Shown here one piece after another: positions 683 to 4,458 of a stretch of 4,458 nt of DNA. A program made the translations under genes and the position numbers. Position 1 is the first letter of the stretch. Each line of letters starts with the position of its first letter. Below the pieces are notes generated by a model. The model saw nothing but the letters and a program-made list of their open reading frames with translations, did no database searches and was not told the origin of the DNA. Origin of the DNA: a virus (taxonomy: Duplodnaviria > Heunggongvirae > Uroviricota > Caudoviricetes); IMG/VR virus record IMGVR_UViG_2582580934_000005, one strand, 5' to 3'.

Positions 683-1072
683 ATGATTGACGCTCATGAC
701 TTCACAAGATGGGTGCGCACACAGGACACCCGTCTGGCTCCCGTTCTTCAGGGATTATTTGATCTCTACATCCGTGGTCGTGACAACAGAGCACGCACCA
801 CAAAACCGGAGAATGCAGACACCCTTTATTTCACAGTAGACGACTGCTACCGCGTGGACTTCACACCACACGGGCTGGCGTTGCACTGCCTGACACCACA
901 CGGCGAATCACTACTGGCGTATTACGACTCCCCGGCCTCCGTATTTGCGGCAATGCTGGCGCATCGCACTGCTGGCGGGTGTGCCTCGCTGAGTGAATAC
1001 ACCGCTGAATTTGACCGCCTTTCCGCCATCTTCTCGCAGGAGTGGCAGCGCGTGACGGGATACCAGCCATGA
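683..1072 (+). CDS. Hypothetical protein (129 aa), translationally coupled to the downstream replication initiator
   Basis: ATG at 683 with AAGAGA (669-674) 8 nt upstream. Its TGA stop (1070-1072) overlaps the ATG (1069-1071) of the gpA-like gene in an ATGA arrangement. No family recognised. Confidence 0.55.
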   Translation: MIDAHDFTRWVRTQDTRLAPVLQGLFDLYIRGRDNRARTTKPENADTLYFTVDDCYRVDFTPHGLALHCLTPHGESLLAYYDSPASVFAAMLAHRTAGGCASLSEYTAEFDRLSAIFSQEWQRVTGYQP

Positions 1073-3924
1073 GTGAGTTTGCATGGAGCTGGAATGAACC
1101 ACGACCAGCCATTGATCCGGCCAGATTTACGGAGCGCAGGCAGGAAACTGAAACCGACTTGCAACGCGTCATCCGTTACTACCTTGAGGCGGACAAAAAG
1201 GCCCGGGAAGAACAGGAAGCGAAGGAGGAAGCCTTTTTCGCACAATCCGCCATGGGTAAAAAACTCATGGCATCCCTTGAGGAAGCCGGACAGCGTGAAA
1301 AGCTGGCTCAGAGCATCATCAGTAAGCGCCGGGCAACAGAACAAGACCCGGTAGCCCGTGCCTTTGCCACACTGAAGGCGCTTCCCGTTTATCTGCGAGA
1401 ACCTCTGAGCCGCCACCTCTCTTTCCTGCGCAAAAAACAGGAAGCCGATCGCCGGAAAGGCAAAAAGAGCTGGCAGGCTGAACGCTACGCGCGCGGAACC
1501 CTGCGCAAAATATTCGAACGTCTGGACCGCACCGACCACCGCTGGCTGACACCGGGTTATCGCTCCCTTGCCGGACGCGAACGCCTGGATGATTTGCTTT
1601 ACCTGCCGCAGCTCAACAAACACCAGATACAGACGCTGGCCACCATGACGGCGGCGATGTTCAGCAGCACCTTCGAAAAACTCTGCGATGGCTTTGGCGC
1701 GACTGATGGCGAGCTGACCATGGATGTAACGCTGAAGGCGTATCAGATGCTGGCCCGCATGGCGTTACACCTGCACGCCATGCCTCCGCATTATGACGCA
1801 CTGACAACAGACAAAGACCGGAGGAACGAACCGGACACGGAGCTGCTGCCGGGCGCAATCCTTCGCCTGACCTGTGCGGAATGGTGGAAACGAAAACTGT
1901 GGCTGTTACGTTGCGAGTGGAGAGAAGAACAACTCCGCGCCGCCTGTCTGGTTTCCAGAAAAACATCGCCCTATCTGAGCCAGGACGCGTTAAGCGAGTT
2001 TCGCGCACAGCGCGAGAAAACACGCGATTTCCTGAAAAGTTTCATGCTGGAAAACGAAGACGGGTTCACGATTGATCTCGAGACAGTGTATTACGCGGGA
2101 GTAAGTAACCCGGTTCACCGTAAAGCAGAAATGATGGCCACCATGAAGGGACTGGAACTTCTGGCCGAAGCCCGTGGCGACAGAGCGGTGTTTCTGACTG
2201 TCACCTGCCCGTCAAAATACCACGCAACAACGGAGAACGGTCATCCGAACCCCAAATGGAACGGGGCCACCATGCGCGACTCCAGCGATTACCTGGTTAA
2301 CACGTTTTTTGCGGCGGTCCGCAAAAAACTGAACCGCGACGGCCTGCGCTGGTATGGCATCCGCACGGTGGAGCCTCACCATGACGGCACCGTGCACTGG
2401 CATATGATGGTCTTTGCTCATCCGGAAGAAATCGACAGCATCGTGGCCATCACCCGCGATATTGCCATTCAGGAAGACCGCCACGAGCTGGGCAATGACA
2501 TTACTCCGCGCTTTAAGGTGGAGTATGTCGACGGCTCAAAAGGCACACCAACCAGCTATATCGCCACCTACATTATCGCGACCTACATCGGAAAAAACCT
2601 GGACAGCCGCGCCGTGGATGGCATCGACCCGAAAACGGGCAAACCACGCGTTGACCACGAAATCGGAAAATCAATGGCCGAGAGCGTGGAGCGCGCCATC
2701 GGCTGGGCACGCCTTCACCGGGTCCGCCAGTTCCAGTTCTTTGGCATCCCCTCCCGTCAGGTGTGGCGTGAACTCCGCCGCCTTGCCAGCCAGATGGCAC
2801 GCAACCCGGAAGGCCCGCAACGGCTGAAGGATGACGCAATGGATGCGGTACTCGCTGCCGCTGATGCCGGATGTTTTGCCACCTACATAGAGAAACAGGG
2901 CGGCGTACTTGTTCCGCGCAAGGACTACCTGATTCGCACCGCCTACGACCTCGCCGATGAGCTGAACGATTACGGCGAACAGAGCGTACAGATTTACGGG
3001 ATCTGGTCACCACTCATCGGGGAATCCTCCCGTGTGTGCACGCATCCGGATAACTGGAAGCTGGTAAGACGTAAACCGGAAGCGGAAGACAGCGCCCGCG
3101 AAAATGGTTTTGACCTTCAGGGCGGCCCTGCCGCCCCTTGGACTCGTGGCAATAACTGTCCCCGTGTACAGGAAACGGACAACAACGGGACAGAACAGCC
3201 GGAAGAACGGCCAGCACCGTGGCCGCAGCTTCCTGACGGCATTGAAGTGAACGAATGGATGCGCTCACTGAAACGGCACGAACGCCGGGCGCTGATGCGT
3301 TCGCTTCGTGACAAACAGGCAAAAAACAGCAGTGATGAAATGCAGAGCTGGACACAGAGCCGCAAACAGCAGCGGCCTTTGCCTGATAACCACGAATTAC
3401 TCGCTAGAGAATGGCGGGAGTCTGCTGAATCTCTCGGCCTGCATATCGGTGAACAACAAATGCAGCACCTGTTACGGGGCGGCAGTCTGTACGTTGACGG
3501 CAGCATCATTGCACCGCAGGGATTTGAAATTGTACGCAAACCGGATACCCGCCCGGACAGCCGAATCACGCAGCTCTGGCAGCGCCTGAGCCGTAATCAC
3601 GGTGTAAGCAGCACGGAGATCCGCCATAACCCGGTCGCCAGCTATCTGGCACAGCTGGGGGCATCAGACCCTGAAGCCGCCACACGCCTGGCATCCACAC
3701 TTCAGCAGGACCAGAACACCATGAAAACACCCGTTACCGTGCTTTCTGACATGCTGCGCGCCATCCGCGACGCAGAGCACGCACAGAGAATCAGTGAAAC
3801 CACTGAACGCGCCCGCCGCAAAGCAGACCTGCTGCGGGGTGGCCTGACCAGTGGAAACAAAAAACAGACAGAAACGGGACTCACGAATCCCGTAAATGAG
3901 CAAAAAACGCGCAGCGATATATGA
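1069..3924 (+). CDS. Rolling-circle replication initiator / replication endonuclease, phage P2 gpA family (HUH endonuclease), 951 aa
   Basis: Long ORF in the supplied track (1042-3924). Contains VEPHHDGTVHWHMM (HWH at 2395-2403) and a tyrosine motif SYIATYIIATYIGKN (2554-2598), which match what I recall of the P2/186 A protein motifs (VEPHHDGxxHWHMM; GYIAKYISKN with catalytic Tyr 450/454). Start placed at ATG 1069 (ATGA overlap with the upstream stop) in preference to the track's GTG 1042, which has an AGGAG directly abutting it with no spacer. Longer than the roughly 760-aa P2 protein as I recall it. Confidence 0.9.
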   Translation: MSEFAWSWNEPRPAIDPARFTERRQETETDLQRVIRYYLEADKKAREEQEAKEEAFFAQSAMGKKLMASLEEAGQREKLAQSIISKRRATEQDPVARAFATLKALPVYLREPLSRHLSFLRKKQEADRRKGKKSWQAERYARGTLRKIFERLDRTDHRWLTPGYRSLAGRERLDDLLYLPQLNKHQIQTLATMTAAMFSSTFEKLCDGFGATDGELTMDVTLKAYQMLARMALHLHAMPPHYDALTTDKDRRNEPDTELLPGAILRLTCAEWWKRKLWLLRCEWREEQLRAACLVSRKTSPYLSQDALSEFRAQREKTRDFLKSFMLENEDGFTIDLETVYYAGVSNPVHRKAEMMATMKGLELLAEARGDRAVFLTVTCPSKYHATTENGHPNPKWNGATMRDSSDYLVNTFFAAVRKKLNRDGLRWYGIRTVEPHHDGTVHWHMMVFAHPEEIDSIVAITRDIAIQEDRHELGNDITPRFKVEYVDGSKGTPTSYIATYIIATYIGKNLDSRAVDGIDPKTGKPRVDHEIGKSMAESVERAIGWARLHRVRQFQFFGIPSRQVWRELRRLASQMARNPEGPQRLKDDAMDAVLAAADAGCFATYIEKQGGVLVPRKDYLIRTAYDLADELNDYGEQSVQIYGIWSPLIGESSRVCTHPDNWKLVRRKPEAEDSARENGFDLQGGPAAPWTRGNNCPRVQETDNNGTEQPEERPAPWPQLPDGIEVNEWMRSLKRHERRALMRSLRDKQAKNSSDEMQSWTQSRKQQRPLPDNHELLAREWRESAESLGLHIGEQQMQHLLRGGSLYVDGSIIAPQGFEIVRKPDTRPDSRITQLWQRLSRNHGVSSTEIRHNPVASYLAQLGASDPEAATRLASTLQQDQNTMKTPVTVLSDMLRAIRDAEHAQRISETTERARRKADLLRGGLTSGNKKQTETGLTNPVNEQKTRSDI
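2560..2589 (+). repeat. 15-bp imperfect tandem duplication inside the catalytic tyrosine motif of the gpA-like gene (encodes IATYI-IATYI)
   Basis: atcgccacctacatt (2560-2574) followed by atcgcgacctacatc (2575-2589), 13/15 identical and in frame. Gives Tyr at codons 497, 501 and 506 (numbered from the 1069 start). Confidence 0.7.
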
Positions 3925-3972
3925 AGCGCGCACAAAACAGGCAAAAACGGGATTTCAGAATCCCGTAAACGA
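3862..3972. repeat. Two copies of a ~38-bp direct repeat, each containing a 20-bp palindrome (ACGGGAnT-N4-AATCCCGT); candidate partition centromere/operator (parC-like)
   Basis: Copy 1 at 3862-3899 (palindrome 3874-3893, inside the gpA 3' coding end). Copy 2 at 3935-3972 (palindrome 3947-3966, perfect 8-bp arms, in the intergenic region). 32/38 identity; centres 73 bp apart, about 7 helical turns. CA5-6C A-tracts sit at 3858, 3901, 3931 and 3941. Lies directly upstream of the ParM-like start. Confidence 0.5.
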
Positions 3973-4000
3973 TTAATTAATCAACATAAGGAAAAGCGAC

Positions 4001-4458
4001 ATGAAAATTTGTATCGACGACGGCTCCACCAACATCAAGCTGGCATGGACTGAGAACGGCGAACGCCGCAACGCCATCAGCCCGAACAGCTTCAAGTCGG
4101 AATGGTCTGCGCCGTTCGGTGGTACGCAGCCCGCGAACTACATGCTTGATGGCGTGCGCTATGGTTTTGATCCGGTCAGCGATCGCTTTGTCCAGACGAC
4201 CGACACGCAATACCAGTACAGCGATGTGAATGTCATTGCCATTCATCACGCGCTGGTCAAATCAGGCATCACGCCACAGGAGGTGGATGTGGTTGTCACC
4301 CTGCCACTGAGCGAGTATTTCGACACAAACGCACAGCCGGACATGGCCAACATCAGCCGCAAAAAAGCGAACGTTATGCGCCCGGTGGAGTACCAGAACG
4401 GTGAGGCATTCACTATCCGTAACGTACGGGTTATGCCTGAATCCATTCCGGCTGGCTT
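4001..4458 (+). CDS. parM: ParM/StbA-like actin-type plasmid segregation ATPase (5' partial; continues beyond the window)
   Basis: ATG at 4001 with AGGA (3989-3992) 8 nt upstream; in-frame stop TAA at 3974-3976 bounds the start. My translation MKICIDDGSTNIKLAWTENGERRNAISPNSFKSEWSAPFGG...YSDVNVIAIHHALVKSGITPQEVDVVVTLPLSEYFDTNAQP...RKKANVMRP...FTIRNVRVMPESIPAG shares blocks with the N-terminal half of R1/R100 ParM(StbA) as I recall it (IDDGSTNIKL, ISPNSFK, YSDVNV, HHAL, KKAN, VMPESIPAG). Not in the supplied ORF track because no stop occurs within the window. Confidence 0.88.
   Translation, partial: MKICIDDGSTNIKLAWTENGERRNAISPNSFKSEWSAPFGGTQPANYMLDGVRYGFDPVSDRFVQTTDTQYQYSDVNVIAIHHALVKSGITPQEVDVVVTLPLSEYFDTNAQPDMANISRKKANVMRPVEYQNGEAFTIRNVRVMPESIPAG

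Follow-up and report, generated by a model that had tools for sequence, protein, structure and literature searches.

A candidate bipartite ParMRC centromere upstream of parM in a P88-like, P2-family prophage

Introduction

ParMRC is the textbook actin-based DNA segregation machine, and plasmids are where it has been studied. Here, an integrating prophage of the P2 family encodes a ParM and a ParR that are closely related to the R1 type. The DNA analyzed was a stretch of 4458 nt from a Caudoviricetes virus (IMG/VR record IMGVR_UViG_2582580934_000005), referred to below in its entirety as the window. Two near-identical repeats, each with a palindromic core, lie in the window where gpA, the gene for the replication endonuclease, ends and parM begins. 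The question raised by this locus is what these repeats do. An earlier note on the sequence proposed that they form a candidate ParMRC centromere (parC) and operator, or alternatively that they are part of the replication origin. The centromere proposal was supported at the sequence level by a ParR gene, by conserved dyads, and by linkage of the repeats to parMR. The repeats are probably a compact, bipartite, parC-like centromere to which ParR binds, and the cassette is most likely an R1/pB171-type ParMRC (type II) partition system carried by a P88-like, P2-family temperate phage.

Escherichia phage P88 and related phages, which are classified as Xuanwuvirus within the Peduoviridae (P2-family temperate phages), matched the full length of the window at 95-97% identity, and the window corresponds to the early region of a P88-like prophage. 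The parR gene is located outside the window, and data for ParR were taken from P88 and full-length relatives.

Two repeat blocks with dyad symmetry precede parM

A repeat search identified two direct repeats of 42 nt (Table 1), which were identical at 34 of 42 positions (81%) and were separated by 73 bp from start to start. This spacing equals 6.95 turns at 10.5 bp per turn. The two blocks cover about 115 bp in all, from -143 to -29 relative to the parM ATG. The chance of such a repeat was assessed with 200 dinucleotide-preserving shuffles. The best 42-nt direct repeat in 3700-4100 was the 34/42 pair, and the best repeats in the shuffled sequences had a mean of 23.4 matches and a maximum of 26, so that none of the 200 reached 34. 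These results confirmed that paired palindromes lie in direct repeats seven helical turns apart, as previously described; the repeat length, originally given as approximately 38 bp, was extended to 42 nt.

Each block contains one 20-bp dyad. The distal dyad has 9-nt arms that match at 89%, or alternatively six perfect base pairs (ACGGGA/TCCCGT), and most relatives carry a better version of it, GGGATTCACAAATCCC. The proximal dyad has perfect arms of 8 bp around a 4-nt centre. The motif GGGA-N8-TCCC was found at two places only in the window, both of them the dyads, and occurred 3 times in the whole 35.8-kb P88 genome compared to 0.65 expected. The repeat search found no tandem iteron array (at least four direct iterons of 10-11 bp), and each block consists of a single dyad with A-rich flanks. 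There was no match to Rfam in 3858-3999 at E values up to 1, and a check by eye gave no match to integration host factor sites or Ogr-type (TGT-N12-ACA) sites. The regular spacing of A-tracts that had been pointed out was upheld in the window, where AAA showed a periodicity of 10.5 bp (p ~0.0005 versus shuffles), but this phasing was not kept in the Hafnia or Plesiomonas relatives described below.

Table 1 Features of the window at and around the candidate centromere. Percentages and counts of invariant columns refer to the four-sequence footprint described in the text.
Feature	Position	Strand	Sequence elements	Evidence or remark
gpA replication endonuclease	1069-3924	+		Pfam Phage_GPA PF05840, E 6e-128; last ~22 codons extend into the distal block
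Distal repeat block	3858-3899		A-rich flank CAAAAAACAGACAGAA, dyad, AAATGA	Repeat search; 0/200 shuffles; 67% invariant columns
Distal 20-bp dyad, proposed ParR site	3874-3893		ACGGGACTCACGAATCCCGT, core GGGA-N8-TCCC	Locus-specific motif
Variable spacer	3900-3930		Contains the gpA stop (3922-3924) in the window	10/31 columns invariant
Proximal repeat block	3931-3972		CACAAAACAGGCAAAA, dyad, AAACGA	Second repeat copy (81%); 74% invariant columns
Proximal 20-bp dyad, proposed ParR site	3947-3966		ACGGGATTTCAGAATCCCGT, 8-bp arms, free 4-nt centre	Inverted-repeat search
parM leader	3973-4000	+	AT-rich TTAATTAATCAAC and ribosome-binding site AAGGAA	71% invariant columns
parM 5' part (actin-like ATPase)	4001-4458	+		Truncated by the window end; full-length homologue in P88 has PF06406 and PF21523

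ParM and ParR of the P88-like phages

The gene order in P88 is integrase, C repressor, Cox, small early genes, a 'derepression' open reading frame (ORF), gpA and parM, followed by a 103-aa 'partition protein' and small ORFs, and then by the portal and terminase genes on the opposite strand. P88 ParM matched both PF06406 (StbA_N, E 1.8e-82) and PF21523 (ParM C-terminal domain, E 1.3e-68) and aligned end to end with the R1 ParM structures 1MWK/1MWM (E 9e-93, ~55% identity). Variability in parM was 0.003 and 0.002 at codon positions 1 and 2, respectively, and 0.034 at position 3, and the gene is under strong purifying selection.

A ParR-type gene downstream of parM, which the earlier note had set beforehand as a test of the centromere proposal, was present. 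An ORF of 103 aa begins 4 nt after parM in P88 and in all full-length relatives, and its product belongs to PF10784 (Plasmid_stab_B, E 1.6e-24). Both ParM and this ParR are listed as partition proteins in PHROGs. A ParR family profile built from eight phage and plasmid ParRs matched a sole structure, that of pB171 ParR/StbB (2JD3, E 2.8e-16); phage ParR used as a single-sequence query gave no match to 2JD3. The pB171 ParR is a ribbon-helix-helix centromere binder with a conserved tail that binds ParM (PMC5016525).

In a set of 21 phage ParR variants, whose identity to the representative was 43-89%, no variation was seen in the segment RRI.FYLKP at the N-terminus or in the NI..FP tail at the C-terminus. 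A typical member has TRRISFYLKP at the N-terminus, the putative DNA-reading segment, and NIRALFPE at the C-terminus. Residues N96, L100 and F101 were invariant from the phage proteins to the ParRs of IncF and Pantoea plasmids, and by analogy with pB171 (PMC5016525) the C-terminal tail probably contacts ParM. An AlphaFold2 model of the ParR monomer showed an unstructured N-terminus and helices at residues 20-29, 32-36, 39-52 and 54-61. The model is uninformative on the ribbon-helix-helix, because this fold is an obligate dimer.

The middle of ParR (approximately residues 20-95) was found to be hypervariable, for example at L001 9820-10131 and at L019/L020 3001-3315. When two loci with divergent ParRs were compared, the adjacent ParM proteins were 98-99% identical and the DNA sites were unchanged. 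Such variability is unusual for an adaptor and points to diversifying selection on the linker and cap region, or to recombination there.

Conservation of the two-site layout

The palindromes were conserved in relatives, as the earlier note had expected of a partition site. Within the P88 clade (98 unique sequences), variability was 0.02-0.06 in the dyad arms and 0.03-0.06 at third codon positions, and these sequences were too similar to inform; the centre of the proximal dyad was the most variable part, at 0.19. A footprint was therefore read from the four most diverged members of the clade, which were the window, L099, a Hafnia metagenome-assembled genome (L174) and Salmonella L005. The proportion of invariant columns was 44% in gpA upstream of the blocks and 32% in the spacer, and it was higher in both blocks and in the parM leader (Table 1). 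Within the dyads, 21 of 24 arm positions were invariant compared to 1 of 8 positions in the centres.

P2-like prophages of Hafnia (L008) and Plesiomonas (L010) encode a ParM that is 62-63% identical and have the same gpA...parM-parR...portal arrangement. Their upstream DNA is no longer alignable with the window, and each has two GGG-N10-CCC sites. These sites lie at -128 and -55 from the parM ATG in Hafnia (spacing 73) and at -131 and -59 in Plesiomonas (spacing 72), as compared to -125 and -52 in the window (spacing 73). The two-site layout, scored by spacing and position, was obtained in 0 of 10,000 shuffles in each of the three lineages; the GGG-N10-CCC motif had been generalized after the distant loci were seen, and the shuffle statistics are not fully independent. 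An unbiased lag scan of the 200 nt before parM was also performed in four lineages, and the best 30-nt direct repeat was found at a lag of 72-73, with its start at -131 to -140. The Plesiomonas pair was found independently by the repeat search (26 nt, 81%, spacing 72). Part of the AT-rich leader, ATTAATCAA (3976-3984) followed by ATAAGGAA, was also present at both of these distant loci.

A search for the Hafnia/Plesiomonas-type two-site pattern, written as TTGATTAAT-N12-17-GGG-N10-CCC-N54-60-GGG-N10-CCC, returned 0 matches in viral contigs and 3 in metagenome contigs, none of them near a parM. Single-protein scans with the Hafnia and Plesiomonas ParMs returned nothing close, and a genome-contig scan returned only relatives at 98-100% identity.

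These comparisons also bear on the possibility that the repeat is a neutral duplication without function, which we consider very improbable. One relative (L166) has lost one copy and the spacer with parMR intact, and arm conservation within the clade does not exceed that of synonymous sites, both of which would be compatible with neutrality. However, the 72-73-bp two-site layout persists in lineages that can no longer be aligned, and the footprint is one of conserved arms as opposed to free centres and a free spacer.

Linkage of the repeat block to parMR

The repeat block belongs to parMR and not to gpA. It lies directly before parM whether the preceding gene is gpA, as in the window, an unrelated ORF of 155 or 159 aa, as in L059 and L140, or an ORF of 167 aa, as in Hafnia. 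On E. coli chromosomes that have methylase and AAA-ATPase genes, or AAA-ATPase and S8-peptidase genes, after a gpA of 94-97% identity, homology to the window ends at ~3810-3825. Neither the repeats nor any GGG-N10-CCC motif was present at those parMR-less gpA loci.

In close relatives, the stop codon of the upstream ORF is located at -183, -133, -105, -76 or -24 relative to the parM ATG, due to frameshifts in an A-run, an early stop, or deletion, and the DNA block is kept throughout. Because the upstream stop varies while the block stays, the overlap of gpA with copy 1 is incidental read-through and not a conserved coding feature. The overlap of the replication gene with the partition site, which had been noted as unusual, is present in the window, where copy 1 lies in the last codons of gpA, but as a designed coupling it is not borne out, since it varies among relatives. 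For annotation, the last gpA codons in this clade would be better described as read-through into a regulatory element than as a conserved protein tail.

The 3' part of gpA (3601-3857) showed variability in the clade of 0.031, 0.032 and 0.062 at codon positions 1, 2 and 3, respectively, as against 0.003, 0.002 and 0.034 in parM, and the C-terminal part of the protein evolves almost neutrally. In some relatives, the equivalent of this 3' part is a separate ORF of 155-159 aa. In L166 (IMGVR_UViG_2657245439_000011; parM at 3501), only one repeat block remains after a deletion of 73 bp that joins equivalent points of the two copies, and gpA ends 24 nt before an intact parM and parR. This deletion is as expected of recombination between direct repeats.

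The position of the repeats at the 3' end of gpA raises the alternative that they are accessory elements of a gpA-dependent origin, or that they are bound by a different protein of the phage, for example Cox, C or Ogr. The P2 origin lies inside gene A, and bending by A-tracts is common at origins. The P2 nick site, which is annotated at 29892 inside gene A, mapped by protein alignment to ~3131-3162 of the window, approximately 700 bp upstream of the repeats, and the two sequences (GCCGCCCCTTGGACTCGTGGCAATAACTGTCC in the window and GCCGCGCCTCGGAGTCCTGTCAATAACTGTGG in P2) are recognizably the same DNA. In addition, phages with the same gpA that lack parMR have no block, the block stays with parM when other ORFs intervene, and the motif was not found at other P88 regulatory regions. 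A role in the origin, which the earlier note had offered as its alternative, was thus unsupported and was rejected, and of the explanations considered here this one, including sites for other phage proteins, seems the least probable.

A stretch of 62 nt around the nick site (~3118-3179) was the only part of the window that matched dozens of Klebsiella P2-like phages (85.5% identity), indicating that the origin is far more conserved than the surrounding gene.

Transcription signals and hairpin potential

A promoter scan scored no sigma-70-like promoter in 3600-4200, and no -35/-10 pair conserved across lineages was seen on inspection. No plus-strand terminator was found between gpA and parM, which makes read-through from the early operon plausible, and we infer that parMR is read from that operon, at its distal end. 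The AT-rich stretch upstream of parM that had been suggested as a -10 element does exist, and part of it recurs in two distant lineages, but it is not accompanied by a sigma-70-like site or a convincing -10/-35 pair. The proposal that the repeats act as an operator likewise received no computational support.

The dyads could nonetheless serve mainly as an operator, through which ParR or another phage regulator represses or tunes the transcription or translation of parMR, with no role in segregation. This would imply a domesticated or vestigial partition module, and it overlaps with the centromere reading rather than excluding it. In R1, operator and centromere functions are combined in the same sites (PMC2241845, PMC5016525). 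In the window, only 34 bp separate the end of the proximal dyad from the parM ATG, with the conserved AT-rich leader alongside, and the element is nearly always integrated in a chromosome. A mainly regulatory role is nevertheless unlikely given that neither a sigma-70-like promoter nor a conserved -35/-10 pair was found, and that strong purifying selection on ParM together with the invariant ParM-binding tail of ParR suggests that the contact between motor and adaptor is still in use.

Both dyads were also listed by a terminator scan of the minus strand (ACGGGATTCTGAAATCCCGT TTTTGCCTGT and ACGGGATTCGTGAGTCCCGT TTCTGTCTGT; 3 found versus 1.1 expected), each as a stem-loop followed by a T-rich run, and the RNA folds of the window dyads were better than those of shuffles (z -2.4 to -3.6). 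The two hairpins might therefore be intrinsic terminators of minus-strand transcription that block read-through from the rightward-lying late genes into gpA. The stems are weak, however, with 8 pairs of which 4 are GC, and there is no gene upstream on the minus strand; the closest one, portal, is over 1.2 kb past parR, and the ORFs in between are on the plus strand. The Hafnia and Plesiomonas sites showed no significant hairpin (z -1.2, -1.35, +0.25 and -1.8), though position, spacing and GGG/CCC are kept. ACAGGA, which occurs in both copies of L059 and L140 at the same half-site position as the AATCCTGT variants elsewhere, would put an A-C mismatch in the stem, and terminators offer no explanation for a spacing of 72-73 bp. 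Minus-strand terminators, which we hold to be highly improbable, were rejected, as the distant sites do not keep the stability of the hairpins and no transcription unit lies upstream on the minus strand. Because the distant sites keep GGG/CCC and the spacing without hairpin potential, we favour a protein-binding site in duplex DNA, probably one read by a dimeric protein.

Comparison with known partition sites

The parC site of plasmid R1 is 159 bp long and strongly curved, with a 39-bp core that contains the promoter and five 11-bp iterons on either side of it. Each group of iterons is bound separately by ParR, which folds the DNA into a U shape (PMC2241845). Split centromeres of this kind are typical of type II systems (PMC5016525). 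Like the P88-type site, parC of the R1 ParMRC (parA/stb) system lies immediately upstream of parM, has two repeat blocks that flank a non-repeated spacer, and shows phased A-tracts or curvature, and the proteins are homologous (ParM ~55% identical, ParR in PF10784 in both). In contrast to the two sets of five tandem 11-bp iterons in R1, the phage site has two 42-bp blocks 73 bp apart, each with one dyad of 16-20 bp. The par promoter of R1 is located in the 39-bp core, whereas no promoter could be recognized between or after the phage blocks, and the A-rich strand of the phage site is inverted relative to the T-rich plasmid iterons. The host elements also differ, a plasmid for R1 and an integrating phage here.

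The pB171 par1 ParR (StbB, 2JD3) resembles the phage ParR family by profile and has an N-terminal ribbon-helix-helix domain and a conserved C-terminal tail (PMC5016525). It is 130 aa in length, as compared to 103 aa for the phage protein with its hypervariable middle.

The same bipartite plan as in the phage site was found in a Pantoea plasmid (L014), where two 35-nt blocks lie 72 bp apart upstream of parM; these blocks differ from those of the phage in that each has three TTTCTCT iterons of ~11 bp. P2-like prophages of Serratia and Enterobacter (L011, L012, L102-L105, L175) carry a bipartite element at approximately -130 to -35 of parM, as in the P88-type site and L014, and their cassettes occupy the same position between gpA and portal as those of the P88 type. 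Unlike the P88-type site, the Serratia/Enterobacter site consists of two inverted arms of 14-20 bp (GGGAACGATATAGAAAAAT / ATTTTTCTGTTTCGTTCCC) that are 26-28 nt apart, and the N-terminal segment of its ParR reads NRKISFYL rather than TRRISFYL. A bipartite plan upstream of parM is thus general, with a repeat unit that differs between ParR types. The P88-type site is classed as a variant because the bipartite plan is present and tandem iterons are absent.

The best precedent for the role of such a cassette in a prophage is the AlpA/AlpC/alpS system of the Corynebacterium glutamicum prophage CGP3, in which an actin-like filament former acts with an adaptor whose binding sites are repeats located in front of the operon that encodes it (PMC4446434). 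Expression of the system begins early after induction, and without it the circular phage DNA is not replicated and positioned efficiently (PMC4446434). It differs from the P88-type cassette in that the sequence families and the host phylum are unrelated, the alpS motif consists of TTAAnnG repeats, and AlpC is a divergent Alp, as opposed to the close R1-type ParM here.

Prevalence and episomal state

A 601-nt query from the end of gpA to the start of parM had sequence matches in 1371 of 5426 complete E. coli genomes, with at least 80% of the query matched in 1287. The places matched were on chromosomes in 1531 cases and on plasmids in 2. Approximately one in four complete E. coli genomes has the carrier phage, and O157:H7 and ST131 strains are among them. 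None of the database records examined annotates a cis-site, though the proteins are annotated. Searches of the literature on Xuanwuvirus, P88, CP-933T and ParM in P2-like phages brought up no study of this cassette or site.

One complete P88-like phage, including integrase, C/Cox, gpA and parMR, has been deposited as a circular, non-mobilizable 'plasmid' of 34,461 bp from an E. coli isolate (NZ_CP148288.1, L018). This record may represent an episome, an excised phage, or DNA assembled from an induced phage, and is a lead to an episomal state rather than proof of one.

Proposed mechanism

Based on the sequence comparisons, the following mechanism is proposed. Dimers of phage ParR, the small, putatively ribbon-helix-helix-type adaptor encoded just 3' of parM, would bind each block, reading a core of GGGATT-N4-AATCCC, or more generally GGG-N10-CCC, together with the A-rich flanks. 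The 73-bp spacing of the blocks, or seven helical turns, would place both sites on the same face of the DNA, and the variable, A-tract-phased spacer could be bent or looped out. The resulting compact nucleoprotein complex would display the conserved ParR C-terminal tails (NIRALFPE), which would capture the growing ends of ParM-ATP filaments, so that copies of the phage DNA are pushed apart or to defined positions. Because parMR is at the distal end of the early operon, and neither a terminator nor a recognizable promoter of its own was found, the target of the system is most likely circular phage DNA that is not integrated, following infection or induction, and not the integrated prophage.

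A minimal two-site centromere may further allow an integrating P2-like phage to apply an actin motor of the plasmid type to its circular genome, when this is excised or before it is integrated, either to position replicating copies or as a temporary plasmid-like episome, that is, in a facultative phage-plasmid state. We offer this extension tentatively, as a possibility that is less likely than the centromere assignment itself. The candidate centromere, at ~115 bp and with two short dyads, makes it possible to test whether the motor is used in lytic replication or in the establishment of lysogeny, whether the phage persists as an episome, and what minimum number of ParR sites is needed to cap a ParM filament.

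Several observations weigh against a ParR-binding centromere. The site has two dyad-containing blocks instead of the tandem 10-11-bp iterons of R1 and pSK41, and may accommodate fewer ParR dimers than known segrosomes do. By the counts given above, the element is chromosomal in nearly all cases, and a plasmid-type centromere has no obvious use there. In the shallow P88 clade, the arms were no more conserved than third codon positions. The Hafnia repeat was weak when taken alone (19/30, p ~0.14), and the GGG-N10-CCC motif had been generalized post hoc. Homology to 2JD3 is the one line of support for the ribbon-helix-helix fold of ParR, the AlphaFold monomer being of low confidence (predicted local distance difference test score 54). 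Lastly, with no sigma-70-like promoter, the classical operator role that accompanies such centromeres in R1 was unsupported.

Other features of the phage

The slot after gpA carried other genes in related loci. In E. coli chromosomes (L168, L169), the same gpA was followed by a DNA adenine methylase and an AAA ATPase, or by an AAA ATPase and an S8 peptidase, and KAP NTPase, DUF3800 and HicAB were found after parR in other loci. This slot looks like a cargo hotspot, and its genes look like defence-type morons. The product of the ORF located 3' of parR (L001 10195-10527) is 110 aa long. It has a C4 zinc finger of the ClpX type (PF06689, E 8e-18) but lacks an ATPase domain, and may be a ClpX mimic or an adaptor-like phage protein.

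A toxin gene of the Hok/Gef family was also present on the phage (L017 (P88) 34928-35068; L018 1291-1431). It is a counterpart of the second stability locus of R1 (parB, hok/sok); no Sok-like RNA was detected at the Rfam gathering score in the Hok/Gef-carrying phage.

Upstream of gpA in the window, an isrK Hfq-binding RNA at 126-200 and a C4 antisense RNA at 236-323, both on the plus strand, matched Rfam with 62.8 and 78.5 bits, respectively. Both matches were above the gathering score, and the pair is also present in P88. An ORF of the 'Derepression' family (380-610, 76 aa) lies directly downstream of the two RNAs. The region resembles the RNA-based immunity/antirepressor modules of P1 (immI) or P4, but within a P2-family phage.

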